Assembly: GCA_963822945.1 (NCBI GenBank)
Contig: CAWGJO010000019.1
Span: forward strand, 1-34,123
DNA: 34,123 nucleotides
Origin: an uncultured Gemmatimonadaceae bacterium
GTDB lineage: Bacteria; Gemmatimonadota; Gemmatimonadetes; Gemmatimonadales; Gemmatimonadaceae
Direction of reading: 5' to 3'
Shown here: piece by piece, positions 6,121 through 34,123 of the stretch
Position numbering within the stretch: the first letter of the stretch is position 1
How the letters are laid out: every line of letters starts with the position of its first letter
Position numbers and translations under genes: made by a program
The notes under the pieces: model-generated
The model's database searches: none
What the model was told of the DNA's origin: nothing
What the model saw: the letters and a program-made list of their open reading frames with translations, nothing else

Positions 6121-6160
6121 GCGCAGGTCTCCTGCGTGAAGCACGCGCGGTACCGGTTGA

Positions 6161-6208: not shown

Positions 6209-6297
6209 CGCATTCTTCCGTGCGACCGTCTCCCGCGCTTCGAACCTCGGCTCCCTCACCTCCCGCGCGACGCCAGATTCTACCGGCACACCTCCTG
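6209..6297 (-). pseudogene. queG: queG 3' fragment, copy A (decayed)
   Basis: Minus strand reads SQEVCR*N, then after a frameshift AREVREPRFEARETVARKNA; colinear with the copy at 33888-34115. Confidence 0.7.
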
Positions 6298-6355
6298 GGA
6301 GGTGTGCCGACAAAACTGTATTGAAATTGTATTGGCAACGGGACGGCGAAGTCTC
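6284..6355. repeat. att-like site copy 1: perfect palindrome plus conserved arm
   Basis: CGGCACACCTCC-TG-GGAGGTGTGCCG (6284-6309) followed by ACAAAACTGTATTGAAATTGTATTGGCAACGGGACGGCGAA. Confidence 0.85.
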
Positions 6356-6655
6356 AGAGAGACAGATCCTTGGCTGTGTGTCTGTGACTCAGTGCGGCGG
6401 TGGTGATGCCGCCCAGTGGGGGCGGCCTCCGGGCTCGGCACACCTTCGGCCCCTTCCCGGGCTAGGAGTGATGTGGTCCACCATGGTTCATCAGTTGGGC
6501 GACCGCCGGCCCCCTTCTCTGAGTAGCGGTTCAGCTTTCGCGGGTCACGTCGCAGAACAGCTTAGTCGCATCTGATTCACGAAATGGGGCTCACAGCAGA
6601 TGCCGTTGGGGACGCCCCCGTAGGTGACGGACCAATAGTCCGCGGGCTGCCCGGA

Positions 6656-9018
6656 TCAACGGAGCCACACGAAGATGGCCGCACATCCATTGCCCATGGC
6701 TTCGACCGGGAGCTCGGCCACCGAGGTGTAGACCTCGACCCCCACGACCCAGGACACCGGGATCGCGTCGAGCACCTCTGGCGAGTCCATAGTGAAAGTG
6801 CCGTACGGCAGGTCGTCAATGAACAACTCGTAGCGCGGAATGCCGCCGACCGTTGCGTTGCGGCACTGGGGCAGCCGCCGCGCCTTTCCTTCGAGCAGGT
6901 CGGAGAGCTTGACCGGGTGCCGCCGCTCGATGTCGGTCTCCGTGAAGAAGTCGCCGCCCAGGCCCGACATGCGGCGCTGCGCGCTCCGCTGGTAGAAGAG
7001 GTCCAGCTTGTGCATCTGGTTGTCCGGCATGTCCGCCATACTGTCTGCTCTGGCGATGACCGTGGGCAGCAGCGTCACGGGTTGCATCGTCACCGAGAGG
7101 CTCGCGGCGCCATCGGGGGGGACGACGGTCGCCATCGCGACGGGCGCGAATCCCAATCGCCGGGCGCGCACGAGCGTCGTACCGGCCTTCACCGCCGGCA
7201 CGACGAAGTTGCCAAGCGAGTCGGTACGGGTGTGCACGTCGAGCCCCACGATGATCTCCACGCCGGGCACCGGGTTCCCCGCCGAGTCCGCCGCGAATCC
7301 GACGACGGTGCCGGTAGCGGAGGCCCGACCCCGCTCCTTCAGTGCGAAAGCCACCATCGTCGTCGGCGCGTCGGGGAGCGTGACGACCGTGTCGAGCACT
7401 ACGTCCGGGCCGTGCAGCGCCCGCACGGCCACGAAACGGCGTCGTGGCAGGTTGCACACGTAGAACCTTCCGCCGCCATCGCGAGACAACGTTCGTGCGC
7501 GCGCCCTCGGCGGTTCCGTCGCCCGGCCACGTCAGCTCGAGCGCGCTCGCCCAATCCGGCGCGGCGCCCTTCGCCGTCAAACGTCCCATCATCACCGTCG
7601 TCCCGGAATTCACCGGCTCGCCCTGACAGATCCTCCGCTCGATGTCTTCGTACGAAAGCAGAGCGAGGTTGGGGAGGGAATCGCGTTTGTCCGGCACGAC
7701 GACGTCCGCTTGCACGGGTGGTTCGGCGTGGAACGCGGCCAGCGCCATGTCTTGCGCGCGCACCGTGTAGCGCGCGGGCAGCAGATCATCGAAGCGGAAG
7801 GCGCCGTTCGCGTCGGTCGTAACCGTGTCCGCGGTCGCCGTGAGCCAGACGGTCACGTCGCGCGCCGGCAGGCCGAATGCGCCGCGCACGACGCGTCCCA
7901 CGAGCGTCCCTACGGGGCCATGCCAGCGTACGCCGTCGGGCCATGACGCGTCGGCCAGAATCCCACCGATGCGGTCCACCTGCGTGATCCGGTCCGGGAA
8001 CTCGCCGGGCGCGAGCCGGGCCGCGTTCCGTCGCACGACCACCGGCGCAATCAGTGACCAGCGGCTCAGCACCACGACGCCGTTCGACATCGTCGCGAAA
8101 GTGATGGAGCCGCCGGCGTTCGCCGCGGCGGCCGAGGCCTCGATGCCCACGTAGTGGAACTGCATGCTGCGCAGCTCAGGGTTGCCGCGCCGTAGCCAGA
8201 GCGTGCCCGCCACGTCCACGACGTCCGTCGAGGCATTCTTCGCCGGGTCGAAGGCCAGTCCGATGTCATTGGGGTGGTGGACCGAGTCGACCACCACCGA
8301 GAAGCAGTGCGTCGCCGCGAACCGCGGATCCAGCAGTACGTCGCCTCGGGCGCGTAGTAGGTGCGCAGCCCGTTGGCGTCCACCACGAACCCCATGCGCG
8401 CGAAGTCTCTCGCGCTGGCGGCGGCACCGAACGCCCGTTGCTCTCGACCGACGGTCACCCGCGATCGTTGCTGCAACAGATGGTCGTCCGCGTCGAAGAC
8501 CTGGCGATAGCTGAGCACCCGGACCGTCGCCGGGAACGTCTTGCGCCCGACCACCGTCGCCAGGAGTCCGGCGCGCGCCTGCTGCCAGAGCTCGAGCGCG
8601 ACGCCACCCCCGGCCTCTCGGCCGCCGCAGATCTTCTCCGACCTGCTGTACATCGCCGGGAGCACAATGGTGATGGCGGTCATGCGCACGTCAAGCCGTT
8701 CCGTCCGGCCCGCCTCGGCGCCACCGCCCGCTCCACGGGTCGGAATCCGATGCGCAGGACTCGCGCGCGAACCGTCTGAAGGGGAACCGCAACGTTGAAG
8801 TGTCCGGCCGCATTCGTGATGAACTGGCTAAGGACACGGCCCCGGCTGTCGGTCAGGGTCACAACCGCACCAGGGATCGGTGCCGAACTCATGCTGTCGC
8901 GCACCGTGCCCTCGACACGTTGCGCGCCAGCGAGTCGTGCGGTCAGGATGCACAACAGGCCGACTAGGAGGGCGCGGCCACCGAGACGCGCGGCATACGA
9001 CGCAACGGGTGAGCGCAT
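6656..9018 (-). pseudogene. Secreted protein with several carboxypeptidase-regulatory-like (CarboxypepD_reg) domains and a C-terminal TonB plug-like domain; about 3 frameshifts
   Basis: Signal peptide, then VEGTVRDSMSSAPIPGAVVTL, TTDANGAFRFDDLLPARYTVRA, TDSLGNFVV...RARRLGFAP and a final GCAAIFVWLR. Spread over ORFs 8680..9036, 8066..8689, 6816..8297 and 6656..7489. Confidence 0.75.
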
Positions 9019-9267
9019 AACCTCACCATGCGCCACGAGCCCGACGCCGGAAAGTGTGTGAGATTAGAAAATGATGAAGCTGGTGTTACGATGCTGTGAG
9101 GGCTGCTCAGCCTGGGCTTCCGGTGTCCCATCCAACGCGCCGACTATCCTGATGGGAACTCGCCCAAAGTGGTATCGACCACGTCCATCTCGTGCGCATT
9201 CCAGTAGGTCGCCGCAACCCGCCAACGACACTCACTACGCCATCCGCCGTCGACGGTCCGGCCGAGG

Positions 9268-9330
9268 TTCGCGCGCTCGAAAGCTCCTGACCTCCCGCGC
9301 GAACGCCACGTTCGATCGGTACCTGTCCTG
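9268..9330 (-). pseudogene. queG: queG 3' fragment, copy B (short, decayed)
   Basis: Minus strand SQDRYRSNVAFAREVRSFRARE; shares ACCTCCCGCGCGA with copies A and C. Confidence 0.6.
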
Positions 9331-9385
9331 GGAGACGTGCCGACAAAACTGTATTGCGATCGCGTTGGATACGGGACGGCGAACT
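9316..9385. repeat. att-like site copy 2
   Basis: TCGGTAC-CTGTCCTGGGAGAC-GTGCCGA then CAAAACTGTATTGCGATCGCGTTGGATACGGGACGGCGAA. Confidence 0.85.
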
Positions 9386-9441
9386 CGCTTAGGGACGCCG
9401 GGCGAGCAGAGCTGAGGCCCTCAAACGCCGTGGCCTTGGAC

Positions 9442-10239
9442 TCAGTCCGATCTGGTGATCCCGTCGTCGAGGCGATCGCCGCGAAGCTGCTCTGCGGAAA
9501 TTCCCGGAGCGTCGCCCGGCGGGGCCGCGGGCGCGTTGCCTGCTATGGCCTCACGCAACTCAGCTTCTTCGCTCTCGACGCGACGCCGGCCTATCCAGGT
9601 GATGAGGTGGACCAGCCAATTCGGGAGCTTATGTGCCTGTGCACTCTCAACTTGATGATCGAGCAGTGCCTTAGGGGTCCACCATTGGCGGTCCAACCCG
9701 CGAATCTCAGATTCCGCGAGTGCTTCCCCGCCGGGCAGCCGCCGCGCGAAGGCCACTTCCTGAGCCACACAGGCATTCTCGATGCGATCCCGCATGGCGG
9801 GTGCGTAGGGAATGCCGAACGCGTGAATGCGCCCGTGCGTTGCCTCATGGATGATGACCATGGCCGTAGTTGGCGCCGAGCAGCTCAGAACCGTGGGCCA
9901 TCCTAGCCAGATCTGGCGGGATGCCGGCTCGTAGTGGTTGATACGTCCCAAGTGGCCGTAGATCGCGCGTACATCCCGTTGAATCCGAGTTAGACGGCGT
10001 GGCTCATACTGGGCTATGTAACCAAGCGCACGCCGAATCCGCGCGGTGAACAGGGCCTCCATCCCAGGTTCCACCGTACCCGAGGCGACCGTGACGCCGC
10101 AAACCTGCTCGCGTTCGGTGAGCCGCAGTAGCAGGTTTGGAAGCAACGCGGCGATGCGCGCGCGGAGAGACCGCGGCGCGCGTCTCAGTCCGCGCTTCCT
10201 GTTATGTCCTCGAATTGCTCCACGTCTCATACCGATCAC
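9442..10239 (-). CDS. Hypothetical protein with an HEXXH zinc-metallopeptidase motif (start uncertain)
   Basis: VIIHEATHGRIH followed by RDRIENACVAQE. Confidence 0.65.
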   Translation of the reverse strand: MIGMRRGAIRGHNRKRGLRRAPRSLRARIAALLPNLLLRLTEREQVCGVTVASGTVEPGMEALFTARIRRALGYIAQYEPRRLTRIQRDVRAIYGHLGRINHYEPASRQIWLGWPTVLSCSAPTTAMVIIHEATHGRIHAFGIPYAPAMRDRIENACVAQEVAFARRLPGGEALAESEIRGLDRQWWTPKALLDHQVESAQAHKLPNWLVHLITWIGRRRVESEEAELREAIAGNAPAAPPGDAPGISAEQLRGDRLDDGITRSD

Positions 10240-10260
10240 AGTTTCAGATAGGCGCGACCC

Positions 10261-11103
10261 GTGCTGCTAGAGCGGATTGGCTTCACACCAGAAGAGATAT
10301 ACTACGGCCAGCTATTGTCAGACGGGAGAATTCTCGTTCCGGCCGTCGTCGCGGGCGAGACGGCGTTGTTTCTGCTGTACACGACGCAGCGCCTCGATCT
10401 GACGATTGATCTCGGCTTCGCGAGGAAACGCGACTGGCCCTACGAGCGGCGTACGAATGACTGGGGTCTTTCCCCCCTCACGGATTTCTTTGCCCTGGGC
10501 TCCGCTCGGCAACACGAGACGGTAGTGGTACAGGGCAGCGAGGAGGATGGCGGTGTCGAGTATATCACGGCGGGGCGGCTCGGAACACTCTACGTGAACC
10601 AAGGCGTGATGGCGATTGATCCGGTCGCCGCGGCAGTTGGGGTGGCGAGAAGCCTGGAGCCGCCCGTGCTACGAGGTGCGGGCGGCGTGTGCGTCGATCT
10701 CGTCGCCGGAACCCTGGATCGTTTGCCAGTGACGGCCAATCTGAGGGACAAGTCAGCCCCTGTCGGTGCTCCACGATTCATGCTTCACACCGGCCGAGAT
10801 CTTTCGGTGATATCCCTCGACTACATCGAGCGGTCGTGGGGCAGCGCCCGCCGCCGGAAAGAGGCTCGACGGGCCCACGAACGCTCGCGTCCGGTTCGCG
10901 TGTGGCTGCGACTGCCCGACGATACGACGGTGGACATGGAAATGCTCGTGGGCAACCTGATCGAACCCGACTACGTGGATACCCTCGGCTCCGGTATCGA
11001 CGGATACCTGGGCCTCGATTTTCTGTACCGCTGGCTTCCGCTCATCGATTTTCCGAACCATGCCCTCTGGTTGGTGCCACTCGATGCGGACGTTCGGACC
11101 TAA
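10261..11103 (+). CDS. Two-domain retropepsin-like (aspartyl protease fold) protein with degenerate catalytic motifs
   Basis: RFMLHTGRDLSVIS in place of FxxDTG, and C-terminal IDGYLGLDFL...LIDF. The first domain has ILVPAVVAGETALFLLYT and TAGRLG. Confidence 0.6.
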   Translation: MLLERIGFTPEEIYYGQLLSDGRILVPAVVAGETALFLLYTTQRLDLTIDLGFARKRDWPYERRTNDWGLSPLTDFFALGSARQHETVVVQGSEEDGGVEYITAGRLGTLYVNQGVMAIDPVAAAVGVARSLEPPVLRGAGGVCVDLVAGTLDRLPVTANLRDKSAPVGAPRFMLHTGRDLSVISLDYIERSWGSARRRKEARRAHERSRPVRVWLRLPDDTTVDMEMLVGNLIEPDYVDTLGSGIDGYLGLDFLYRWLPLIDFPNHALWLVPLDADVRT

Positions 11104-11108
11104 TCGGC

Positions 11109-11200
11109 GTCGGCACGCGGCCTGGAAGGTGTGCCGACAAAACTGTATTGAGATTCCGTTGGGCACCGGTCAACGGACTCTCAGCAAGGCAACGAGTTAG
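11109..11200. repeat. att-like site copy 3 (no queG fragment retained)
   Basis: GTCGGCAC-N14-GTGCCGAC (11109-11138) then AAAACTGTATTGAGATTCCGTTGGG...GAGTTAG. Confidence 0.85.
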
Positions 11201-11233
11201 AAGGGACTCCTCGCCCGGCGGGGTCGGCCGGTA

Positions 11234-11890
11234 TCAATCGCCACTTGCCTTTGCGCGACTGCGGCGAACGGCGCGTGCGCGTAACATCGCGCCGAGCACC
11301 GTCGCCCCCAGGATCACGCTGCTGTTGACGGCCTGCATGCCGACCGCCGCCAACCGGACCGTTCCGTGACCGGAGAGGGTGACAACTCCTGACACCAGCA
11401 GCGGAGTGCAGACCCACACGACGCCGAATGCGAGCCCGCTCAGGAGCGGAGTCCCGTCGCCGAGATAAGCGGCGATCACGCCACCCAGGGTTGCGTTGGG
11501 GATCCCGATTACCACGAAAACCAGAAGTCGCGCGAGCCCGTGCAACTCACCGATCGAATGGCCTAGCGCGAATCCGAAGGATCGTAAGATACTGGCCGTC
11601 ATCGCCATGACGAACACATCGAGCACCAGCAAGAACGTGAGCGATGAGAAGGCGATCGATGCGAGCCTGACGGCATCGCTGACCGTTAGACCGGACACCC
11701 ACGTGCGTAGCACGTGAGGGGTGGACCGCACCAGTTCCCGGTAGTACCAAAACCGAGCGGCGCGTACGCCGTGGCGGCGTGCCCGATCGGCAAACTCCTC
11801 CGCGAAGTCGCCGACGATGTCCTCGCGGAACGCGGTCTCCTCGGCGAGCGCGTCGAGGAACATTTCGGCGGTGCGTGGCGGCGCAATCAC
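11234..11890 (-). CDS. PadR-associated membrane protein (permease-prefix-like N-terminus, about 4 TM helices)
   Basis: PPRTAEMFL...EDIVGDFAEEF...GVRAARFWYYRELVRS followed by hydrophobic helices; GTGA overlap with the padR stop. Confidence 0.8.
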   Translation of the reverse strand: MIAPPRTAEMFLDALAEETAFREDIVGDFAEEFADRARRHGVRAARFWYYRELVRSTPHVLRTWVSGLTVSDAVRLASIAFSSLTFLLVLDVFVMAMTASILRSFGFALGHSIGELHGLARLLVFVVIGIPNATLGGVIAAYLGDGTPLLSGLAFGVVWVCTPLLVSGVVTLSGHGTVRLAAVGMQAVNSSVILGATVLGAMLRARAVRRSRAKASGD

Positions 11891-12222
11891 GCTCCCTCCG
11901 GGACAATGGGTGTGCCGACCCCCGCCCAAATCGAGGCGGATATCCGTTCGGCGTTGCAGATGGCCTTCCGTCCGGCTCCCGTGACGGCGAAAAGCCGCCG
12001 GGATCGCCCGCCGCGCACCGGCAGCGGGTCCGACGTTCGGGAAGTGAGGAACCCCTTCTCCTCCAACCGCTGCAGGGTCGTGTAGGTGGCCCCGACGGAA
12101 TGGTCGCGTTGCGTGCGGGCAGACAGGTCGCGGCGGATAGCTAGGCCGTAGGCGCCGTCGCCAAGGCGGACGACGGAGAGGAGGACCGCGAGTTCCAGCG
12201 ATCCGAGGGAGGGCGCACTCAT
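11887..12222 (-). CDS. PadR-family transcriptional regulator
   Basis: LGSLELAVLL...AYGLAI...GATYTTLQRLEEKGFL...RGGRSRRLFAVTGAG winged helix. Confidence 0.92.
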   Translation of the reverse strand: MSAPSLGSLELAVLLSVVRLGDGAYGLAIRRDLSARTQRDHSVGATYTTLQRLEEKGFLTSRTSDPLPVRGGRSRRLFAVTGAGRKAICNAERISASIWAGVGTPIVPEGA

Positions 12223-12224
12223 GA

Positions 12225-12239
12225 TTCTATATTGTAGAA
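12225..12239. promoter_or_regulatory. Palindromic operator / -10 region directly upstream of the padR start
   Basis: TTCTA-TATTG-TAGAA inverted repeat 3 nt from the ATG; the minus strand contains TACAAT. Confidence 0.55.
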
Positions 12240-12452
12240 CAAATCAAATGGGCGCAAGGGGGCGAAGGTCGTCGAATGCACGCGGGCGGGACATCCGGCG
12301 TGGGACGCCGAATGCTGCAATCGGTCAGGCGTCGCGCGCCTATTCCATTGAATAGACCTCGCCGTGGACCGCGCGCAGTACCTGCCCGGCCGCTCCATCG
12401 GCCGACCGACGTACGGGGGGCGCACAGCCGGCCGGTTGGTCTGCGACGCGGC

Positions 12453-12872
12453 TCACCTGCTGGAACTGCCGCTGGCGAAGACAACATCGGCACCGGCCCC
12501 TTCGCCGCCTAGCTTGCCGTCCGCCCCATCTGACCACAGTCGGTAGGAGTCCGCCGCGCGCCGATATTCATACGCGCGGCCCCAAGGGTCGAGCGGCATC
12601 CTGCCCGTGACATACGGGCCGTACCAAGCGCTATCCGACGGTGCGAGGTTCGGCTGTTGGGTGAGGGCGCCGAGCCCCTCGGTTGTCGTGGGGTAGCGCC
12701 CCACGTCGTGGCGGTAGGTCTCGAGTGCGGCCGCGATCTCCTCCATGTCGGACTGCGCCGTCGCCGCCGGATGGCGAATCGGCCGATACCACTGGGGGCG
12801 CACGACGCTGACGGCGAGCGCCGCGAGCACGAGCAGGAGCGCGACCCCGATGGCGCGATCAACGGCTGTCAT
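12453..12872 (-). CDS. gspG: Type II secretion major pseudopilin GspG-like protein (orphan)
   Basis: ALETYRHDVGRYPTTTEGLGAL, WYGPY, DPWGRAYEY and SDGADGKLGGEG motifs; N-terminal TM helix without a GFTLIE prepilin site. Confidence 0.8.
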   Translation of the reverse strand: MTAVDRAIGVALLLVLAALAVSVVRPQWYRPIRHPAATAQSDMEEIAAALETYRHDVGRYPTTTEGLGALTQQPNLAPSDSAWYGPYVTGRMPLDPWGRAYEYRRAADSYRLWSDGADGKLGGEGAGADVVFASGSSSR

Positions 12873-13350
12873 CGATCGCAATCGGTCCTCCGTGGCAATC
12901 CGTTGTGCGCCCCACGCCGGGGGGCCAGGAGTAGTTCTCCTGGACGTGCGGCGGGCCGTACCCCGGCGTCCGGCCCGGCGGGCCAATCCATTCCTGCGGA
13001 ATCGAGTCCGGCGGGGGCGCGGTGCGCGCATTGAGCGTGTAGTCGCACCACGTCCACCAGTACCCGAAGTTCCAGAGCCCAGCAAACTCGGTGTTGAGCG
13101 ACGCGGCCTGCTCGCTATCGAGGTGCGCGTAGATGGAGTCGACGTTGTAGGGCGGGCGCCCGAAGTGCTCGGCGTACGCATAGACGGACCGGGACACGAG
13201 GCGGAGGTACATCAGCGACGCCACGCGGTCGGAGACCAGAATGCGGGGTGCATGACGGATGCGACGAATGCGCCAACCCAACACGCCAATGCACGCGACG
13301 AGCGCCCGAGCAACAGCCATCGCCGGATCGCGGAGCCATGGCCAGTCCAT
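12859..13350 (-). CDS. Hypothetical membrane-anchored protein (fused to the permease in the ORF track only through a frameshift)
   Basis: Own RBS (GGAG) and ATG at 13350, just after the true permease stop at 13356; N-terminal hydrophobic segment followed by YAYAEHFGRPP. Confidence 0.55.
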   Translation of the reverse strand: MDWPWLRDPAMAVARALVACIGVLGWRIRRIRHAPRILVSDRVASLMYLRLVSRSVYAYAEHFGRPPYNVDSIYAHLDSEQAASLNTEFAGLWNFGYWWTWCDYTLNARTAPPPDSIPQEWIGPPGRTPGYGPPHVQENYSWPPGVGRTTDCHGGPIAIDDSR

Positions 13351-13355
13351 GTGGT

Positions 13356-16112: not shown

Positions 16113-16441
16113 GAGGGCTCCAGCACGCCCGAGACCGCGGCCACGTACCGGTGCCAGGTCGCGAGCTCGGCCTGCAGCGTGCGCCGTCCCTTTGCGGTCA
16201 GCGCGTAGTACTTCGCTCTGCGGTTGTTCTCCGAGATGCCCCAGGTGGCGCTGACGGCACCGGCGGCTTCGAGGCGATGCAACGCCTTGTACAGGGCGGC
16301 ATCGACAATCGCCAGCTCGTCGCCCGAGTGGCGCTCGATCCAGGTCGTGATGCCGTAGCCGTGCATCGGGCCCCAGGAGAGGGTCTTGAGCACGAGCACA
16401 TCGAGCGTGCCGTGGAGGAGGTCGTTGGTCGAGCGGGGCAC
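16109..16441 (-). CDS. PadR-family transcriptional regulator (Acidobacterial type)
   Basis: [24 protein letters not shown]...LYKALHRLE...[25 protein letters not shown] before the GTG. Confidence 0.93.
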
Positions 16442-16622
16442 GAATCCTCCACAAACCAGGTTAGATGAGAAGCTGCCGGTTCTGCCGGGCGGTGTCAAGC
16501 GCTCCACGCAGGGCCGGTCCTCACGCCGCCAATCGCCGAGTGGTAGGTTGGGAGCGCGACCCGTGGGGGCGACGGAGCGACATGGTGTCATCAGGAGCAT
16601 CCATCATGCCGGGAGCGACGTG

Positions 16623-23312: not shown

Positions 23313-23354
23313 TCACCGATGGAACGAGACGGGCGCTTGCGAATTCCCCTTGCA

Positions 23355-23400: not shown

Positions 23401-23403
23401 CTC

Positions 23404-23736
23404 ATGCCGCCGGACCGTCTCGATCTCCCGCAGGGCACGCTCGACCTGCTCATCCTCAAAGCGCTCTCGCTCGCCCCCCAGCACGGGTGGGGAATCTCGG
23501 AGCGCATTCGCCAGATCTCGCGCGAGGTGCTCGACGTACCGCAGGGGTCGCTCTATCCCGCCTTGCACCGGCTGGAGCGGCGCGGATGGGTCAAGGCGCG
23601 CTGGGGGACCTCGGACAACAATCGCCGGGCGAAGTTCTATGAGTTGACGCGACGAGGGCGCGCGCAGCTGGCGGTCGAAACCGGCGACTGGGAGCGGTTG
23701 GCCGCGGCGGTAGCCCTCGTTCTGCGGACCACCTGA
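23404..23736 (+). CDS. PadR-family transcriptional regulator (Acidobacterial type)
   Basis: DLPQGTLDLLILKALS...HGWGISERI...QGSLYPALHRLE...WGTSDNNRRAKFYELT. Confidence 0.95.
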   Translation: MPPDRLDLPQGTLDLLILKALSLAPQHGWGISERIRQISREVLDVPQGSLYPALHRLERRGWVKARWGTSDNNRRAKFYELTRRGRAQLAVETGDWERLAAAVALVLRTT

Positions 23737-23749
23737 CGCCGGCCGATCC

Positions 23750-26368: not shown

Positions 26369-26518
26369 GTCGCATTCGCCCGAGCCGCCTTCCGCGTCGT
26401 CTGCGAGGGGGCCTGGGTCCGTGAAGAGTGGTCCGGCTTCCCAAACGCCTGCACTGGAGGCGCTCCCCTGCCTGACCGGACGGCCGCGAGCGGCTGCCCG
26501 CCTATCGACCGAGGCGGG

Positions 26519-27022
26519 TCATCCGCACTTCTCGTGGTAGATCATCATCTGGATCTTCCCGTCACCGGCCGCGTCCGGAGTGAATACGTACACGTAGTCG
26601 GCGTCCAGGTGGTCGTTGGTGCGCTCTCCCGCGGCGTCGAACACATCGCTTCTCGTCGTGCCGATGGACCACGCGATCTGGTCGGACGCGAACGAATGGG
26701 TCTCGGTGTTCATCGAGTTCCTGAACACCTTGGGGTTCGATGTCAGTACCGTTTTCGCCATGGCGTCCCGGCCGTAGCGGAGCTGGAACGGCGATCGGAA
26801 AAACGCGTTGGAGTGGATCTGCGCCAGCATGCCGGGCAGGTCATCGGCGTTCCAGGCCTGCTGGAACGCGTGCATCAAGGAGTCGGTGAGGGAACCGGAA
26901 GTCGCGCTGGAGACGGGAGCGACCGCGGCCGTCGGCGCGGGGACCTGGGTGCGGTGGCCGTGGAGAAAGCCCAGGGAGTAGGTGGCCAGGAGGACGAGGA
27001 CGTGGGGAAGGGACTTCCTCAT
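26519..27022 (-). CDS. NTF2-like / SnoaL / DUF4440 domain exported protein
   Basis: N-terminal signal or TM segment; FQQAWNADDLPGML...YGRDA...IAWSIG...YVYVF pattern. Confidence 0.7.
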   Translation of the reverse strand: MRKSLPHVLVLLATYSLGFLHGHRTQVPAPTAAVAPVSSATSGSLTDSLMHAFQQAWNADDLPGMLAQIHSNAFFRSPFQLRYGRDAMAKTVLTSNPKVFRNSMNTETHSFASDQIAWSIGTTRSDVFDAAGERTNDHLDADYVYVFTPDAAGDGKIQMMIYHEKCG

Positions 27023-27043
27023 GGGTTCGACTCCGGTAAGGAA

Positions 27044-27064
27044 GGGATGGGAAATTCAATGGGG
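27044..27064 (-). mobile_element. Orphan IS91/ISCR oriIS-like end
   Basis: Minus strand CCCCATTGAATTTCCCATCCC; the 17-nt core matches 2278-2294 at 15 positions. Confidence 0.45.
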
Positions 27065-27161
27065 GTCGGTCGAGTATATGGCGTGGTCCCCCGCAGTGGG
27101 AGGACCGACGACGCGTGCGCCACCATCAATCAACGCCTCTCGGCCCCTGGAATTCCGGCCA

Positions 27162-28580
27162 TCAGGCCGAGACGGATTTACCGCTGTAGGCCACGCCAAG
27201 CCTGAACACGGCCCACAGCACTCCGGTCACTGGGATTGCGATCAACGTCAAACCAAGATCGGGCTGGAACAGGTTGAGGGTGCCGAACGATGCGCCGAGC
27301 ATGCTCGGCATGAGGCTGAAAATGACCCAGGCCGAGCCCAGCGTGGTGAGCAACGGGAACCACAAACTGAACAGGCCGAACGGGCCCGACTTGGCGCGTA
27401 GTTCGCGGCGGTGACGCCATGCCCAGATCATGCTGAGCAGGAACATGACCGGCGTGAGCACCAAAGAGATGAACAATGCTTTCAGGGACCAGCGGGATCC
27501 CTCGCCATCGTAATCGAGACCGAGCGCCCGGGCCGCGATGCCGTTGCGGAGCTGCAGCCGTTTCCCCAAAGCCGATGCCGCTGCCGGCGTTGACCAGCAC
27601 GACCACCCCCTTCTTTTCTGCCGGGACCATCGTCGCGAGCGATTCGTAGCCGAGGCTATTCCCCGTGTGGCAGACGGTTCCTTTCCCTGGATCCACAAAC
27701 CACCCGAAGCCGTAGAAGGGAGAGGCTTCGCTTGCCGGGCGCATCATGGCGGCTTTGCCCTTGGCGCTGAGGACATCGTCTTTGCCATTCATCATCATCA
27801 CCATGTAGCGCGCCAGATCGCTGGCGCTGGCGATGATCCCGCCTTGGGGAGCCGTGCCCAGATCGGTATGGTTTACGGCCAGCGGGCGCTTGGAGCCAAA
27901 CCATGGTCTGTGCCCTGGTCGCCATGGCGTCATGGATCTCTCCATCAGCGACAAAGCTGTGCGTCATGCCAACCGGCTCCATGATGTTGGTTTCAATGTA
28001 GGTCTGGTATGTCTGCCCGCTGACGACTTCGATCAGGCGACCAAGAATCTGGTAATTCAGGTTCGAATACTCCCACTTGTCGCCAGGTTTGTAGGCGGGA
28101 GTCACCCCTGCCATCTGGTCAACCCGGCGCGCCAGTGCATCCTTGTGCTGGGTGTCGTCCTTGTGTGAGACGGTTCCCTTGAAAGGTGGACAACCCGCTC
28201 GTGTGGCTGAGCAACTGGCGGATCGTGATCGCCCCGGCGGGCCGGCCGGAGAAAACGGCGAGATAGTGCGAAACTTCGGTATCCAGGCCGACCTTGCCCG
28301 CCTCGACCAGTTGCATCACGGCCAGCGCCGTAAAGCTCTTGGAGATCGAGCCGGTATTAAAGGGTGTGTCCGGCGTGACGGCCTTGTCGCCTCCCATCCT
28401 GACGACACCTCGCGCGCCAACCGTCTTGATTTCGCCATCAGCCACGACGGCATAGGCCAGACCGGGAACGCCGGAGACCGGCATCTCGCTGGCGATGAAG
28501 TCGTCGATGGATCCTGTAGGTATGCCGGCTTGCAACGCAGCGGTGAACCCAAATGCCAGGAGAGCCAGCATTCGCCGCAC
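27162..28580 (-). pseudogene. Serine hydrolase (beta-lactamase/PBP-related family) with C-terminal TM helices, several frameshifts
   Basis: SISK (SxxK), LLSHTSG, YSN and HTG motifs across ORFs 28119..29138, 27656..28114, 27178..27954 and 27162..27698. Confidence 0.82.
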
Positions 28581-28845
28581 GACATCCTTCCTGTGATCCC
28601 GTGCCCGCAAACCCGGCACGGACCTGTTCATTGCCAAACGAATGGTCACTACTGAGAGGAAATTCCTTTGGGGCGGCGCATCAGGGGAGGCCGGAATGAC
28701 ACCGAATCGTGCGTTCGTTCGACGGTGCTTCGAGGGGCTGGTAGCAACGGGGCGCACGCCGGGAGGCCAGCCGCTATGGAGATCATAGGCTTTCATCCGC
28801 GCAAGCGCGAGCGTCGACTGGCGATCGAAGCCGAGGACGGCACGA

Positions 28846-28912
28846 ATGCTGGCCCGTTCAGGTCGTGCGCGAAATTGCGGTTGAATGGGCACCCCTCCTG
28901 GGAGAAGGGCCG
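28846..28912 (-). pseudogene. queG: queG 3' fragment copy D with att-like core copy 5
   Basis: Minus strand SQEGCPFNRNFAHDLNGPAFVP; plus strand GGGCAC-CCCTCCTGGGAGAA-GGGCCG (28887-28912). The arm is not recognisable. Confidence 0.7.
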
Positions 28913-29127
28913 GTCGGCGCTGCCATCCGCAGCCGTCATTCCGGTGTGACACGGCGGACCCTATATTGGCGCACCCCCCACTCGCCCGCTTCGTCCCATT
29001 TGAGGGTCTATGTCCGACGCCGGACTGCGTGAGCAGGTTCAGAGCACCGTGAGGGCGTCGCATCCCCTCGAGCGTGAACGCGCGGGCGGGATGCCACGGG
29101 TCACCCTTCCTCAAGCGGCGGCCTGAC

Positions 29128-31818
29128 GTGGCTGGCATTCCCTCCCGGCTCGTGGCCGCCCTCGCCGACCGCTACCGCCTCGAGCGCGAGCTCGGGCAGG
29201 GCGGGATGGCGACCGTCTATCTCGCGCGCGATCTCAAGCACAACCGCGACGTCGCGATCAAGGTCCTGAAGCCCGAACTGGCCGCCGTGCTCGGCGCCGG
29301 GCGGTTTGTTCAGGAGATCGCGACGACCGCGGCCCTGCAGCATCCCAACATCCTGCCACTGTTCGACTCGGGAAGCGCCGACAGCTACCTCTATTACGTG
29401 ATGCCCTACGTCGAGGGCGAGACACTGCGGGCCAGGCTCGATCGTGAGACACAGCTTGGCGTGGAAGAGTCCGTGCAACTGATCCGTGAACTCGCCGACG
29501 CGCTCCAGTACGCGCACGCGCACGGGGTAGTGCACCGCGACATCAAGCCGGAGAACATCCTCATCCACGCCGGCCGTCCGACGGTTGCGGACTTCGGCAT
29601 CGCGCTTGCCGTGAGCGCGGCGGCTGGCGGGCGAATGACGGAAACCGGGCTCAGTCTCGGCACCCCGCACTACATGAGTCCGGAACAGGCGACGGCGGAG
29701 AAAACGATCACCGCGCGCAGCGATATCTACTCGCTGGCCAGCGTGTTGTACGAGATGCTCGCCGGCGAGCCGCCGCACACGGGCACGTCGGCACAGCAGA
29801 TTATCCGGAAAATCGTGACCGATGATCCTGTGCCGATCACGACGATCCGCAGGGCCGTGCCGCCGAACGTGGCGGCTGCGCTGGCGAAGGCCCTCGAGAA
29901 GCTCCCGGCCGACCGGTTTGACAGCGCCAAGACGTTCGCGGACGCACTCGCAAACCCAGCCTTCGCCGTCGCGGGGACCACGGCGGTGGGCGCGGCAGCC
30001 GGGCGGCCGACACCGCGGGCGTGGCTCCGCGCCGGCGCCGCCGGCGTGCTCGCCGGGGCGGCGATTGCCGCAGCGGTTATCGTGCCGCTCAAACTGCATG
30101 ACCGGGCGGCCCCGACGGACCGCTACCGGTTCGCCATCGCCGCGGGCGGGACGGCGGTCGCCACCCACACGACGCCTCAATTTGCGATCGCTGACGATGG
30201 CATGACCATCGCCTTCATCGCGAAGGATTCCGCGGGGGCGAGCCAGCTCTGGCTCCGGCGTCTCGATCAGGACACCGCCCAGCGTGTCCCCGGTTCGGAC
30301 GGCGCCAGCGCGCCGTTCTGGTCGCCCGACAGCCGATCGGTCGGCTTCTTCGTCGGCAACACCCTCGAGCGGTACACCATCGGGAACACTCGGCCGTCGC
30401 CAATCGGTGCGGTGAGCGGCTCGTCGTTCACCGCCGCCTGGATGTCCGACGACGAGATCCTGTTCTCCCCGTCCAACGGGCCGATTCTGCGCATGTCCGT
30501 GCGTGGCGGCGGGACCGTGCCGGTGACGACGCTCGATTCGGCTCGTGGCGACATCGCGGATGTCGGTCCGACGCGGCTGGCTGATGGGCGACACTTTCTC
30601 TATACGGCGCTCAGCTTCACCGGGAGTTCGTCCGGTCGCGTCACGCTGGTGGGCTCGCTGGATGGCGGGACCCCCATTCGGGTGATCGACGGCTTCCCGG
30701 CGTACGCGGCGCCGAACCATCTGATCGTAGTGCGCAACGGCGACCTGGTCTCGCTCGACTTCGATCAGAGGACCTTCCAGGTGCACGGCAACGGCGTCAC
30801 GATCGGCAGCGCTGAGACAGTCGGTGAACTCTTTGCATCGGCCAACGGCACGTTGGTGTGGTCGCGGCCGCCGAGTGAGCGGCATACGTCGCTCGAACTG
30901 TACGACCGGCGCGGAATGCGCGTCCGCACGATAGGTCCTTCGGCGTCCGAAGCCGATCACGGATACTACGGGGCGCGATTCTCGTCCGACGGCAGCCGGG
31001 TCGCGTTCGCGCATCACCTGGGCGAACGCGGTGGCGACCTCTACCTGTTCGACCTGGCGACCGGTACCGCAACGCGCGAGACGTTCAAGCCGACGACGCA
31101 CAACCCGCCGGGGCCGTGGTCGCCCGACGGCCGGCGCATCCTCATCAACTCCACGCGGAGCGGAGCGGACAACATCGATGTGAAGACGATCGGTCAGTCG
31201 GACCAGCACCTGATGGTGCCGCCGGTGGCGGTGGGGAGCTTCGCCTCGGATTGGTCGCGCGACGGCGGGACGATCCTCTTCGACCGGCCGAGCATGCGCA
31301 CGCAGGACGACGTGTGGGAGATGCCGGCGAGTGGAGATAGCAGCGCGGGCCCGCCCAAGCCGCTGCTCGCGTCACCCGCGAATGAGATGGAGGCGGTGTT
31401 CTCACCGGACGGTCGCTGGATTGCCTACGCGTCGGATGAAACCGGTCGCTTCGAAGTATATGTGCGCCGGTATCCGCTCACCGGTGAGCAGTGGAAGATC
31501 TCCGCCGATGGCGGCGAGGCGCCGCGGTGGCAGCGCGATGGCAAGGAACTCTTCTTCCTGGCGCCCCGTGGCGAGCAGACGGCCGTGATGGCGGCGTCGG
31601 TGGAGCTGGGCTCGAGCTTCCGCAGTGGCCGGCCCGTCGAGTTATTTCGGAAACCCATACAGCGGCTCCGGGGATTCTTGCGAAGCCTCATGCCCTACGA
31701 CATCTCCCCGGACGGGCAGCGGGTTGCGGTCATCGAGAACGACACGGTCGGTCCGACGCGAGTGCCGCAGGTGGAGGTGTTCGTGAATGCACTGAGTGCG
31801 GCGAGGTCTCCGCACTGA
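29128..31818 (+). CDS. Ser/Thr protein kinase with a TM helix and C-terminal TolB-like/PD40 beta-propeller repeats
   Basis: LGQGGMATVY, VAIKVL, HRDIKPEN, DFGIA, GTPHYMSPEQ; repeated FWSPD/FSPDGR motifs. Confidence 0.95.
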   Translation: MAGIPSRLVAALADRYRLERELGQGGMATVYLARDLKHNRDVAIKVLKPELAAVLGAGRFVQEIATTAALQHPNILPLFDSGSADSYLYYVMPYVEGETLRARLDRETQLGVEESVQLIRELADALQYAHAHGVVHRDIKPENILIHAGRPTVADFGIALAVSAAAGGRMTETGLSLGTPHYMSPEQATAEKTITARSDIYSLASVLYEMLAGEPPHTGTSAQQIIRKIVTDDPVPITTIRRAVPPNVAAALAKALEKLPADRFDSAKTFADALANPAFAVAGTTAVGAAAGRPTPRAWLRAGAAGVLAGAAIAAAVIVPLKLHDRAAPTDRYRFAIAAGGTAVATHTTPQFAIADDGMTIAFIAKDSAGASQLWLRRLDQDTAQRVPGSDGASAPFWSPDSRSVGFFVGNTLERYTIGNTRPSPIGAVSGSSFTAAWMSDDEILFSPSNGPILRMSVRGGGTVPVTTLDSARGDIADVGPTRLADGRHFLYTALSFTGSSSGRVTLVGSLDGGTPIRVIDGFPAYAAPNHLIVVRNGDLVSLDFDQRTFQVHGNGVTIGSAETVGELFASANGTLVWSRPPSERHTSLELYDRRGMRVRTIGPSASEADHGYYGARFSSDGSRVAFAHHLGERGGDLYLFDLATGTATRETFKPTTHNPPGPWSPDGRRILINSTRSGADNIDVKTIGQSDQHLMVPPVAVGSFASDWSRDGGTILFDRPSMRTQDDVWEMPASGDSSAGPPKPLLASPANEMEAVFSPDGRWIAYASDETGRFEVYVRRYPLTGEQWKISADGGEAPRWQRDGKELFFLAPRGEQTAVMAASVELGSSFRSGRPVELFRKPIQRLRGFLRSLMPYDISPDGQRVAVIENDTVGPTRVPQVEVFVNALSAARSPH

Positions 31819-31823
31819 GACGG

Positions 31824-31908
31824 TTCGGTCGACGGGCCCCCGGGTGTTCGACATTGAGATTCGATTGGCCAGCGGCGGCGGAACGCTCAATTCCGCAGAG
31901 AGTTAGGG
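31824..31908. repeat. att-like site copy 6 (degenerate core, arm retained)
   Basis: GGTGTTCGAC-ATTGAGATTCGATTGG...CGCTCA...GAGTTAG aligns to copy 3 (GGTGTGCCGAC...ATTGAGATTCCGTTGG...CTCTCA...GAGTTAG) with a short deletion. Confidence 0.55.
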
Positions 31909-32055
31909 CAGCCCCCGGCGCCCGGGGCCATACGGTGCCAGCGTTTGTTTTTATCGTGGGACTCCGATATCCGGGAATAGCGATTTGCCATAGTTCCACT
32001 TATTCGGCACGAGGTTGTCCTTGCATTTCTGGAACGTCACTCCATAATTGCAAGG

Positions 32056-33227
32056 ATGATCCATCGCCGCCTGCTCGCATCGCTTTCCGCCGCCCTCGAG
32101 GAATCTCCGGCCACCGCTCTGCTGGGGCCGCGGCAGGTCGGGAAGACCACGCTCGCGCTCGAAGTCGCCAAGACGCGGCCGGCGGTCTACCTCGACCTGG
32201 AGTCCGAAGCCGACCGGGCCAAACTCGCCGAGCCGGAACTGTACCTGGCGCAGCACGAGGACAAGCTGGTCATCCTCGACGAGATCCAGCGCACGCCGCA
32301 GCTCTTCCGCAGCCTGCGCGGGCTGATCGACGCCGGCCGGCGGCGCGGGCACGGGCAAGGGCCGTTTCCTGGTGCTGGGGTCGGCGTCGATGGACCTGCT
32401 CAAACAATCCAGCGAGTCGCTCGCCGGTCGCATCCGCTATCTGGAACTCGCCCCGCTCGACGCCGGCGAGGTGGGGCGCAAGCGCCTCGACGCCCTCTGG
32501 TTGCGCGGCGGCTTTCCGGAGAGTCTGCTCGCCGCCTCCGACGCCGCGAGCCTGCGCTGGCGCACGGATTTCATCCGCACCTACCTCGAACGCGACATCC
32601 CGCAGCTCGGGCCGCGCATTCCGGCCGAAACGCTGCGCCGGCTCTGGACCATGCTCGCGCATCAGCAGGGTGGGCTGCTCAATGCCGCGGCGCTGGCTCG
32701 CGCCCTGGCCGTGGACGGCAAGACGGTCGCGGCCTATCTCGACCTGCTCGTGGACCTACTCCTCGTGCGCCGCCTTGCGCCGTGGCACGGCAATGTCCGT
32801 AAGCGTCTGGTCAAGTCGCCCAAGGTCTACGTTCGCGACAGCGGGCTGGTGCACTGCGCTGCTTGGGGTCGGCGACCGCGAAGACCTGCTGGCGCACCCG
32901 GTGGCCGGCGGGAGCTGGGAAGGGTTGGCCATCGAGTCGCTGATCGCGCGCGGCGCCCCGCGGCACCGAGGCGCACTTCTTCCGTACCGCGGCCGGCGCC
33001 GAGATCGACCTCTTGCTCAAGCTGCCCGGCCATCGGAAGCCGTGGGCCATCGAGATCAAGCGCGGGCTGGCGCCGAAGCTCGAGACGGGGCTTCCAGCTC
33101 GCCTGCGAGACGGTGCGGCCGGAGCGCCGCCTCGTGGTCTATGGTGGAGCGGAGCGATTTCCGCTGGCCAAGGACGTGGAGGCGGTTTCGCTCGTGGGAG
33201 CTGTGCGAAGAGGTTGCCGCTGCGTGA
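32056..33227 (+). pseudogene. AAA+ ATPase (AAA_14) with DUF4143 C-terminal domain, several frameshifts
   Basis: Walker A GPRQVGKT, Walker B LVILDEIQ, LGSAS, LRGGFPES, KRLVKSPKVYVRDSGL, EIDLL...AIEIK. Confidence 0.85.
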
Positions 33228-33263
33228 GCGGGTTCAACACCCGACACGTAAGGAAGCACTGAC

Positions 33264-33876
33264 ATGGACATCGGGCGAAGCACGCTCCAGTTCAAGATCA
33301 CCCTGCGGCACATCGAACCGCGCATCTGGCGCCGCATCGAGGTGCCGGCGAGCTATTCGTTCTGGATCTGCACGTGGCCATCCAGGACGCCATGGGCTGG
33401 CTGGATTACCACCTCCACGTGTTCCGCGTGCGGAACCCTGAAACGCGGCAGGCCGAAGAGATCGGGATTCCCGACGACGATCCGTTCGAGGGCGATCCGG
33501 TGTACGTGCCCGGGTGGACCGTGCCCATCAGCAAGTATTTCTACGTCGGGGCACGCGGGCGCAGTACGAATATGATTTCGGCGACGGGTGGGAGCACGAT
33601 GTGGAACTGGAAGCCGTCGGAGGCCGCGAGCCGGGCACCAAATACCCCCGGTGCCTGGCAGGCGAGGGGGCGTGCCCGCCCGAGGACTGCGGTGGCCCGC
33701 CCGGCTACGAGCGCCTGCTCGAGATCTTGAGCAACGCAGCCGACGAGGAATACGAAGAGACCCTGGAATGGACGGGCGGGCAGTTCGACGCGAACGCATT
33801 CGCTCCCGAGGGCGTGCGATTCGACGACCCCAAGGTGCGCTGGCGCAAGGCATTCGGGGGGCGGCGGAGCCGGTAA
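33264..33876 (+). pseudogene. Plasmid pRiA4b ORF-3 family protein, two frameshifts
   Basis: QFKITLRHIEPRIWRRIEVP, IQDAMGWLDYHLHVF, YEYDFGDGWEH, ACPPEDCGGPPGY. Confidence 0.88.
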
Positions 33877-33887
33877 CGATCCGCGAC

Positions 33888-34115
33888 TCAGTTGTGATCG
33901 TCTGGCAGAACGATCTTGGGGTTTCGACGAAGCCCCTTCAGCTTCGCCCGCGTCATCGCCGAACCTTCAAACGCTGCGCGGAGTTCCTCCTCGCTCCTCA
34001 TGAGGAAAATGCCCGCCACCGCCTTCGCGTCCTTGCTCCCAATGACTTCCCGCGCCTCGGACCTCGGCGCCTTTGCGTTGCGGGGGAAGTGATGGTTGAA
34101 CGGGCATACCTCCTG
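33888..34115 (-). pseudogene. queG: queG 3' fragment, copy E (best conserved, open frame; missing from the ORF track)
   Basis: Hand translation: TS-QEVCPFNHHFPRNAKAPRSEAREVIGSKDAKAVAGIFLMRSEEELRAAFEGSAMTRAKLKGLRRNPKIVLPDDHN*, matching the QueG CxxCQxxCPxN ... RAKLxGLxRN segment. Confidence 0.82.
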
Positions 34116-34123
34116 GGAGGTGT
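34102..34123. repeat. att-like site copy 7 (cut by the window edge)
   Basis: GGGCATACCTCCTGGGAGGTGT, nearly identical to the core of copy 1. Confidence 0.8.

Follow-up and report, generated by a model that had tools for sequence, protein, structure and literature searches.

The window analysed here is the whole of contig CAWGJO010000019.1 (34,123 nt), which is contig C19 of an uncultured Gemmatimonadaceae genome that we call G000 (45 contigs, 3.97 Mb, 68% G+C, 88% complete). It holds a row of gene cassettes delimited by copies of one site, five of which are joined to a fragment of the 3' end of queG, the gene for epoxyqueuosine reductase. This arrangement was probably produced by site-specific accretion of non-autonomous cassettes at a fixed point in queG, the cassettes being moved in trans. 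G000 was compared with G001 to G016, which are other species of the same genus; C denotes a contig and L an extracted locus (L022 is G012:C18, L024 is G012:C19, L025 lies in G009, L039 in G006:C8, L038 in G006, L045 and L046 in G012, and L094 is a metagenome contig). Every genome compared is metagenome-assembled. Lists of open reading frames (ORFs) and genes are approximate, the codon-usage caller having mis-called queG, and key genes were confirmed by ORF listing and Pfam.

The centre of the repeated junction is a 24-bp palindrome of 11-2-11 design, GGCACACCTCC-TG-GGAGGTGTGCC, and the DNA to its right is a conserved arm. There are five full cores in the window and a sixth that is truncated by the contig end, all on the plus strand and all intergenic by the ORF calls. 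Remnants of the QueG C-terminus lie on the minus strand to the left of the cores at 6297, 9330, 23256, 28900 and 34115, each beginning at the QEVCP codons; they were scored with a hidden Markov model (HMM) of the QueG C-terminus. The parts of these sites are as follows.

6047-6284, minus strand: decayed queG remnant with a stop and a frameshift, starting at the QEVC codons (22.9 bits)
6285-6308, plus strand: core 1, a perfect palindrome with 0 mismatches to GGCACACCTCCTGGGAGGTGTGCC, folding as an 11-bp hairpin
6309-6400, plus strand: arm of core 1, about 70 nt well conserved and an AGTTAG-like motif near +90
9107-9317, minus strand: queG remnant, below HMM detection and recognisable by eye only in translation
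9318-9341, plus strand: core 2, 6 mismatches, followed by its arm to about 9430
11112-11135, plus strand: core 3, 4 mismatches, followed by its arm to about 11225
23038-23243, minus strand: queG remnant with stops and frameshifts (22.4 bits)
23244-23267, plus strand: core 4, 7 mismatches, followed by its arm to about 23345
28796-28887, minus strand: queG remnant with stops and frameshifts (16.8 bits)
28888-28911, plus strand: core 5, 4 mismatches, its arm breaking off about 10 nt past the core
31853-31906, plus strand: outer arm remainder of core 5, fitting the arm consensus, with no core and no remnant
33888-34102, minus strand: intact-looking queG 3' end (146.8 bits), which together with the core codons makes a 77-codon open frame to the stop
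34103-34123, plus strand: core 6, truncated by the contig end

The left half of core 1 is the reverse complement of queG codons E-V-C-P. An earlier note on this DNA, made from the letters alone, had proposed that five of the junctions are joined at these codons to a 3' piece of queG; translation bears out all five joins and identifies the fragments as QueG C-termini, and the HMM detects four of them. Only the remnant at 34115 retains an open queG patch frame, and this 3' end (33888-34102) is 84% identical to the functional queG 3' end and neighbouring gene of G010. At the junction at 11124 the core and arm are present, and minus-strand translation revealed no queG remnant. The same note had counted seven copies of the site in one orientation, all intergenic. 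Their orientation and intergenic position stand, but the count does not: the copies at 28900 and 31840 are evidently the halves of a single site, into which 2.9 kb of DNA with a kinase gene (29074-31818) was inserted, since the former has a remnant and a core but loses its arm after about 10 nt and the latter consists of outer arm only. An unsplit version of this site, with the same cassette, is found in G009 (L025:10677-10752). The flanks of the kinase insertion are 28912-29073 and 31819-31852, and it lies about 10 nt from the core. Nor does the array begin at 6209, as had been thought. Window 1-6548 equals C37:75002-81532 at 99.3% identity, so that the array extends further left and 1-6284 is the end of a further cassette, of 15.1 kb.

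The G000 assembly was scanned with a profile built from the four best window sites. All 31 rows with E<=10 were on C19, C31, C37, C8 and C7; four of them are the window sites themselves, which are bound to match. These five of the 45 contigs account for 4.65% of the 3.97-Mb assembly. C7 at both ends, C8 on the left and C19 on the right terminate in or beside sites, which explains the breaks in the assembly at these points. An alignment of 53 distinct sites from eleven assemblies (ten genomes of the genus and one metagenome contig) shows about 70 conserved nt past the core and the AGTTAG-like motif near +90, and junctions are 80-95% alike across about 100-150 nt. A structured RNA or an attC-like fold was considered for these sites and ruled out: Rfam gave 0 matches in the window, RNAalifold applied to 48 sites predicted 3 pairs with no covariation, and a scan of the site alignment for paired columns found no varying helix and nothing past the conserved sequence, so that only the 11-bp core hairpin folds. 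We read the arm as presumptive protein-binding DNA.

An intact queG lies at C31:16790-17947 (TIGR00276, 311.5 bits over C31:17015-17941, no stops), with remnants downstream of it. Its Pfam domains are QueG_DUF1730 and Fer4_16, and the core lies at the end of the second Fe-S motif; the insertion point is formed by the codons for the final Cys-Pro in the second 4Fe-4S motif, and some 75 codons separate it from the stop. The intact gene holds only the right half of the palindrome, the other half being supplied with the arm. In the upstream neighbourhood of queG, GreA, RmuC, a LOG-type gene and ORFs without a family match were identified. Past queG, sites occur on C31 at about 24.2 (degenerate), 26.3, 33.3, 41.7, 45.0, 48.3, 50.0 and 51.7 kb. 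C37 has sites at 53.4, 57.0, 59.8 and 66.1 kb and one that it has in common with the window, and C37:42.8-49.7 kb, reversed, matches the native flank that lies downstream of queG in G010 and G014. From the sites that follow queG on C31, the overlap of C37 with the window and the position of the G010 and G014 flank on C37, the order is C31, then the window, then C37. These contigs are by all appearances one array, which runs from queG on C31 through the window (reversed) and C37 (reversed) to the native flank. It comprises 19 sites over no less than some 90 kb and takes up more than 2% of the genome. A variant of C31:24145-33306, 89% identical, is found as C8. Orientation is uniform: the 56 sites examined in 16 pieces are all co-oriented within their own piece, and the 14 sites on the 5 queG-bearing pieces all point one way relative to queG, the orientation of pieces without queG being set from their sites. 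In G012, an extra 3.2 kb (L024 3844-7065) is present at a point matching C31:17882-17910, near the queG stop, with a 29-nt overlap. This insert, which is away from the QEVCP core, may mark a second insertion point or be an insertion sequence (IS) element.

When the 94-nt site was used to search related genomes, matches were found in 12 of the 16 other species of the genus, with 1-18 hits each, and two weak matches in one other genus. There were none in 19 further genera of the family and none in 24 genomes of two sister families. The arrays of G009 and G010 are located inside contigs of 715 kb and 1.8 Mb; that of G010 is a single cassette of 2.1 kb with PRiA4_ORF3 and Fic genes, and G012 has at least 14 sites across 105 kb of one contig. 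The empty state was seen in all three site-free congeners examined (G014, G015 and G016, with no site at E<=1), each of which has one queG with the same half-site and one C-terminus; in G014 the flank homologous to C37:49682-45509 begins 40 nt after queG. Thus three things expected in the earlier note were found: an intact queG in line with the array (on C31, with the far flank on C37), sites confined to few contigs and co-oriented rather than scattered genome-wide, and module content that varies among relatives, from no site to at least 14 on one contig. Public collections were searched with a 20-nt degenerate arm pattern, which proved too loose and gave at least 148 loci (28 viral and at least 120 metagenomic); among the loci listed only L094, which is not circular, has a clear site, and L138 is marginal (E 5.6e-4). 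Four soil read runs hold 6-10% of the sampled words.

The identity of the DNA beside queG gives the background against which cassettes can be compared: 96.2% for G000-G012, 87.6% for G000-G006, 85.7% for G006-G012, 84% for G000-G009 and 79.4% for G000-G010. A 1,627-nt cassette, whose neighbours are unrelated, is 99.3% identical from core to core between G000 (C31) and G006. G006 and G012 have three consecutive cassettes of 99.2-99.9% identity in common, after which the two arrays diverge at a core, and a 7.19-kb two-cassette block with cores at both ends is about 100% identical between the same two genomes. Window 23345-34123 is 98.0% identical to G006:C7:9213-19985, a block that stops at the outer edge of the arm of core 4; in G006, core 6 runs on into a conserved arm and then three further cassettes. 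The G006 contig continues into its own native flank (84% to G000) and is therefore not mis-binned. Single cassettes and blocks of them have evidently been exchanged between species. Other parts of the array were inherited: window 12486-23250 and G012:C13:467115-477889 agree at 96%, the background level for G012, and the whole of window 12486-26394 is common with G012 at that level.

Two junctions show where such exchanges took place. At core 6, G006 equals G000 on the remnant side through ...ACCTCC (G012 has ...ACCGCC), and equals G012 from GGGAC onward (G000 has GGGAG). This confines the three-way switch to CCTGGGA, the 7 bp at the centre of the palindrome. At the second, a block that in G012 stands beside an integrase gene begins to be identical to G006 at the palindrome centre, TCCCAGG. 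The other side of that core is unrelated in the two genomes, being the integrase gene in G012 and, in G006, DNA with an IS-end-like repeat about 40 nt upstream, which rules out homologous recombination for that join. In G006 this block is preceded by a cassette of which a search of G012 found only pieces.

Pfam searches revealed no tyrosine or serine recombinase among the 39 ORFs of the window, and no recombinase was found among the 110 ORFs of the rest of the G000 array and the G012:C13 array. In the whole of G000, PF00589 matched C24:31324-31839 (180.7 bits), a gene that is presumably Xer-like to judge from its score, and weakly C6:58726, with none on C31, C19 or C37; the arrays of G000, G012 (C13, C19), G006, G009, G010 and G001 are without a match. 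PF00239 had 0 matches in G000 and five relatives (controls were positive in 12/14 genomes). There were 35 PF00589 matches in five relatives, all five of which have conserved Xer-like genes, and only two of these matches are beside array sites, both on G012:C18. The cassettes had been described in the earlier note as integrase-free. This is right for the window and the G000 array, which have no recombinase, but the system is not integrase-free at the level of the genus, since an integrase abuts the same core in two of the 17 genomes.

The gene in question, our candidate, is a divergent 480-amino-acid tyrosine integrase at L022:11270-12712 (minus strand; PF00589, 30.2 bits over residues 319-444, with weak Xer-like matches). 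Its translation holds ...DLRHMAAITWA... and ...LLGHSTIKETERY..., which may be the R-H and H...Y boxes of tyrosine recombinases. A core whose left half is slightly altered lies about 50 nt from its stop, and beyond this core come an intact-looking queG patch and two cassettes with the conserved arm. An orthologue in G002 (89%) is placed alike, and the likeness between G012 and G002 ends about 60 nt beyond the core. Against the integron-integrase model the candidate scores 18.4 bits (cut-off 265). A search of a species-genome collection found only two loci of the candidate, tblastn of both G012 integrases against G000 gave nothing at E<=1e-3, and eight loci of weak or distant homologues (seven in other genera and one in the congener G004) have no queG remnant. 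Further along L022, at 14338-19876, are a second tyrosine integrase, an 89-nt tRNA-Arg(GCG) (ARAGORN), a Fic gene and an OLD-type (AAA_15/21 and TOPRIM) nuclease gene; this neighbourhood looks like an ordinary island, a defence island, of which the far end was not located.

From these observations a mechanism can be proposed in which the window would be the middle stretch of one long accretion array grown from a fixed point inside queG. The unit put forward in the earlier note, a queG 3' patch, cargo and an arm, agrees with the structure found. Read in the direction of queG, each unit would consist of a right half-core with a replacement queG 3' end, cargo of 1.5-15 kb, an arm of about 70-90 nt, and a left half-core that is an inverted copy of the queG half-site. 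In a circular form of the unit, arm, core and queG patch would come together as a single attP-like site, and recombination of the circle with the core in queG, or equally with one of the cores of an existing array, would insert the unit. The new patch would then become the working end of queG, and the old end would be pushed downstream and decay. Strand exchange is placed in the central 7 bp or so of the 24-bp palindrome. As units in G000 are without a recombinase, the enzyme would have to come in trans, and the best candidate would be the 480-amino-acid tyrosine integrase that ends about 50 nt from the same core in two congeners. The circular intermediates, the mobilisation in trans and the identity of the enzyme are what we infer.

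Several observations weigh against this proposal. No unit was seen in circular or excised form, though no reads were aligned to look for such forms. The left half-core of the 1,627-nt cassette itself differs between G000 and G006 at 2 of 12 positions, and the preceding 1.6 kb by 0.7%, which puts that breakpoint about 12 nt outside the centre. The block that is 98% identical in G006 stops at the outer edge of an arm, where there is no site. HMM scores of the queG remnants do not fall steadily with distance from queG, and on these scores an age gradient of the remnants was rejected. The candidate integrase occurs in only two of the 17 genomes of the genus (G012 and G002), only 9 proteins in a collection of 5.8 billion clusters resemble it at E<=1e-10, and the viral contigs searched contain no relative of it. 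Between the integrase gene and its core there is no 10-mer, even with one mismatch allowed, that recurs in the conserved arm on the same strand; such matches as turned up were G+C-rich words, lying either on the other strand or at a distance from the core. With no arm motif in common, there is no sign that the candidate acts on cassettes with the conserved arm. An integrase of G000 could also sit in the unassembled part of that genome, which is 88% complete. Lastly, C31:48329-55999 is an inverted copy of itself (94%), with a fold-back centre near 52.16 kb, inside a cassette; either the inverted duplication is real, or two strains were joined there by fold-back. At G006:C8, too, one end is an inverted copy of the other. 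With all genomes metagenome-assembled, these two cases make chimeric joins at repeats possible.

A more far-reaching form of the proposal, which we put forward tentatively, is that of a dedicated gene-capture system, an analogue of the integron that is built differently. Purpose-built non-autonomous cassettes, each bringing a conserved recombination arm of about 90 nt, half of the palindromic core and a patch that repairs queG, would circulate among Gemmatimonadaceae species. A rare, transient tyrosine integrase or an unrecognised host factor would insert them at the Fe-S codons of queG, and the resulting super-arrays of 90-120 kb would be where the genus chiefly keeps its accessory paralogues (PadR-permease pairs, kinases, sigma factors).

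Alternatively, the array might be a graveyard of autonomous islands, as in the classical cis-mobilizable elements (CIMEs), each unit having lost its own queG-specific integrase and being now inert, with sharing among species due to inheritance or the transfer of large blocks. Decay is visible in the broken queG remnants, the pseudogenes and the IS elements, an integrase-bearing element with the same core exists, and the stretch held in common with G012 at background identity is a case of vertical descent; the CIME route is also the default given in the literature for tandems of this kind (PMC5704250). This explanation is nevertheless unlikely. No integrase remnant was found, either by tblastn of the G012 integrases against G000 or by PF00589 in the arrays of six genomes. 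The 53 sites have one arm, with a similar outer limit and unrelated cargo, that differs from the arm on the integrase side, a result that independent deletions would not give. Moreover, units of 1.5-1.6 kb are 99-100% identical from core to core across species whose background identity is 86-88%.

A further alternative retains cassettes moved in trans and assigns their movement to a housekeeping recombinase, of Xer type or other, as in Xer-dependent integrative elements, with no dedicated integrase. This would account for arrays in 12 of 16 congeneric species against a dedicated integrase in two of 17 genomes, and for recent exchange involving G006 and G000, where the candidate was not found; Xer-like genes are conserved in all five relatives searched, and the site is a two-armed palindrome. 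We consider it quite improbable, as the integrase-bearing element uses the same core, which favours a dedicated enzyme, the target lies inside coding sequence, which would sit badly with integration at the chromosome's dimer-resolution site (dif), and four of the 16 congeners are without sites although Xer-like genes are expected there and the queG half-site is the same. Least of all do we favour the absence of any present-day site-specific machinery, with the junctions of about 150 nt serving as homology patches through which cassettes are swapped, duplicated or lost by homologous recombination after DNA uptake: the 80-95% likeness of junctions over about 100-150 nt, the breakpoint outside the palindrome centre and the block ending at the edge of an arm would agree with it, but it cannot account for the first entry into an empty queG (a match of only 13-16 nt) or for the integrase-side junction with its unrelated flanks, and the one three-way junction is confined to the central 7 of about 150 conserved positions.

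The cassettes and genes of the window on which accretion at queG would have acted are listed here, with assignments by Pfam where a family is named.

1-6284: end (right-hand part) of the 15.1-kb cassette that starts at C37:66128, placed by the overlap with C37
93-359 and 440-1207: orfA and orfB of an IS3-family element, within the 1-6284 cassette
3551-5311 and 5311-6120: ORFs without a family match, within the 1-6284 cassette
6285-9317: cassette of 3.0 kb with a CarboxypepD_reg-domain protein (6656-7489, minus strand) and ORFs without a family, a queG remnant at its end
9318-11111: cassette of 1.8 kb with ORFs without a known family at 9442-10146 (minus strand) and 10261-11103 (plus strand), its right end without a queG remnant
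11112-23243: cassette of 12.1 kb with two PadR genes, two FtsX/MacB-type permeases, a pseudopilin like type II secretion protein G (T2SS-G), a DUF3857 protein and ORFs without a family
23244-28887: cassette of 5.6 kb with PadR (23350-23736), an FtsX/MacB permease (23750-26368), an ORF without a family and a disrupted gene of beta-lactamase fold
27178-27954 and about 28154-28490, minus strand: stretches containing the pieces of that beta-lactamase-fold (PF00144) pseudogene, in two frames
29074-31818, plus strand: Ser/Thr protein kinase gene with PD40 repeats, in the 2.9-kb insertion that splits the arm of core 5
31907-33887: cargo of the split cassette, namely genes for an AAA_14/DUF4143 ATPase (32056-33262) and for PRiA4_ORF3 (33264-33873), both frameshifted and both seen by Pfam and by tblastn in three frames

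The dominant cargo of the arrays is PadR regulators paired with FtsX/MacB-type permeases: of the same 110 ORFs, from the remaining G000 array and the G012:C13 array, 25 are of FtsX/MacB type and 11 are PadR, some of them pieces of one gene. Ser/Thr kinases, extracytoplasmic function (ECF) sigma factors, two-component systems, Fic proteins and transposases of IS3, IS110 and IS91 type make up further cargo. Cassettes range from 1.5 to 15 kb, with genes on both strands and with PadR, sigma-factor or two-component regulators of their own. The kinase-PD40 gene has many genomic paralogues of about 70-81% identity, on C23, C33, C44 and C13, and the PF00144 pseudogene has a paralogue on C43 that is 72% identical at the DNA level.

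The split cassette recurs next to sites in G004, G009 and G011, with shorter pieces in further congeners, and in G010 part of it stands directly at queG (the PRiA4_ORF3 gene and the queG 3' end). PRiA4_ORF3 is intact in G006, G010, G011 and G004, 240-350 nt past the core and convergent with the queG patch; in G010 it lies 12 nt after the queG stop. Over several species its distance from the core ranges from 120 to 350 nt. PRiA4_ORF3 was considered as a component of the system and rejected, being limited to one type of cassette and frameshifted in the window.

Traces of transposable elements are scattered in the cassettes. Window 2277-2708 is 94-95% identical to DNA at and beyond the 3' end of an IS91-type Y2_Tnp gene of G012 (L045:200-629) and to L038:19175-19603 of G006, and 81% identical to the counterpart at a second G012 Y2_Tnp gene; it resembles the end of an IS91-type element whose transposase gene is gone. 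A 28-nt repeat of the GGCCTGGGTCCCTGAAAAGTGGTCCAGC type is present at window 2-29, which places it 64 nt upstream of the IS3 orfA at 93, and at 26410-26437. A copy in L039 precedes the core at G006:C8:29398 by about 60-85 nt. This repeat looks like an IS terminal repeat, one copy of which replaced the arm beside a core in G006. Across the end of the IS3 orfB (stop at 1207), at window 1193-1294, is a 51-nt unit in two tandem copies (86% alike), and window 1127-1242 recurs at C31:35571-35686 (94%). Transposase genes of the IS110 family (DEDD) lie inside arrays at C31:34104-35234 in G000, about 770 nt beyond a site, and at L045:10140-11198 and L046:4928-5821 in G012. IS91-type (Y2), IS110 and IS3 transposases were each considered as drivers of cassette movement; they are present in few cassettes and have no fixed relation to sites, and were therefore treated as passengers.

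A full-text search of the literature found no description of integration at queG or epoxyqueuosine reductase, nor of a relevant Gemmatimonad tandem island. The array is of a kind already described, tandem site-specific accretion, at a target, queG, that has not been reported before, and it is not an integron. What sets it apart is the use of Fe-S-motif codons in queG, the uniform non-autonomous design, the size, the exchange across species and the 7-bp crossover. Tandem accretion of CIMEs has been described for elements of the ICESt1/ICESt3 type in streptococci; like the queG cassettes, CIMEs stack at the 3' part of a housekeeping gene and enter at an att site, and tandems of them can move together, as the sections of that account on accretion describe (PMC5704250). 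The queG units likewise follow an intact copy of the target, are bounded by direct att repeats that contain its 3' part, and are without integration genes, a related element with an integrase being found at the same core in G012 and G002. They differ from CIMEs in having one dedicated arm in nearly all units (53 distinct sites) and no integrase remnants seen, in units down to 1.5 kb, in an array of about 20 units and at least 90 kb with no conjugation genes seen, in their Gemmatimonadota host and in the queG target.

Staphylococcal cassette chromosome (SCC) and SCC-like elements form tandem cassettes downstream of rlmH (orfX) in staphylococci, and those without a recombinase that retain att repeats are described as mobilised by recombinases elsewhere in the array (PMC11470126). 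They resemble the queG array in being cassette arrays at the end of one housekeeping gene, with a cargo of accessory or defence genes according to the relevant part of that source (PMC11470126). SCC uses Ccr serine recombinases on rlmH, whereas for the queG array PF00239 had 0 matches in six genomes and the candidate is a tyrosine integrase. Unlike the SCC target, that in queG is about 75 codons inside the gene, and each cassette accordingly carries a replacement end of about 230 nt. At ssrA of Dehalococcoides, more than a dozen repeats of the target 3' end are reported within the 100 kb downstream of the single-copy gene, in numbers that vary with the strain; conserved sequence lies beside the repeat and some islands are without an integration module, as in the queG array (PMC3146451). 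The portion of that paper dealing with the islands gives most of them a six-gene integration module that includes a serine integrase (16 islands) and a 20-bp repeat of an RNA gene (PMC3146451), in contrast to a protein-coding 3' end as the repeat, units mostly without an integrase, and a palindromic core at queG.

Additive flexible islands at tRNA hotspots of Alteromonas (PMC4898812) and the tycheposons of Prochlorococcus (bioRxiv 10.1101/2020.12.28.424599) are similar in that, as outlined in these sources, cassettes varying in number and kind accumulate, partial copies of the target mark the hotspots, near-identical cassettes occur across species and older ones are pushed outward. Their targets are tRNA or tmRNA genes, however, tycheposons by definition carry an integrase of their own, and the relevant sections of these two sources describe no shared non-autonomous arm. 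The suggestion in the earlier note that the system is integron-like does not hold in kind. The analogy is functional only, in a fixed insertion point, recombinase-less cassettes that carry sites, co-oriented arrays and variable content. The defining features of integrons are missing: there is no IntI beside the insertion point and no folded site of attC type, the sites being conserved in sequence, and in contrast to integron cassettes those at queG are multi-gene, hold genes in both orientations, bring their own regulators and each repair the target gene. With elements that use tyrosine recombinases the array has in common an integrase, here the candidate enzyme, beside a core of inverted half-sites, and one junction in the central 7 bp. 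The prophages phage 21 and e14 integrate inside icd and bring a replacement 3' end. As with the queG cassettes, the element-borne 3' end keeps the gene working, but these prophages are single, autonomous and have their own integrase.

These results extend recombinase-less cassette capture at a housekeeping gene to soil members of the Gemmatimonadota, whose phylum is known chiefly through metagenomes. Insertion falls on those codons of an Fe-S enzyme that are most conserved, and the anatomy is clean, with a uniform arm, a palindromic core and a 7-bp crossover. If the integrase and core work as a pair, they would provide a new tool for site-specific integration with a ready target in many bacteria. 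Near-identical cassettes in species that are 86-88% identical offer a natural system in which the origin and the movers of non-autonomous cassettes can be studied. As the cargo is dominated by PadR-regulated FtsX/MacB permeases, the array may drive the expansion of the PadR and FtsX-MacB families in this lineage.

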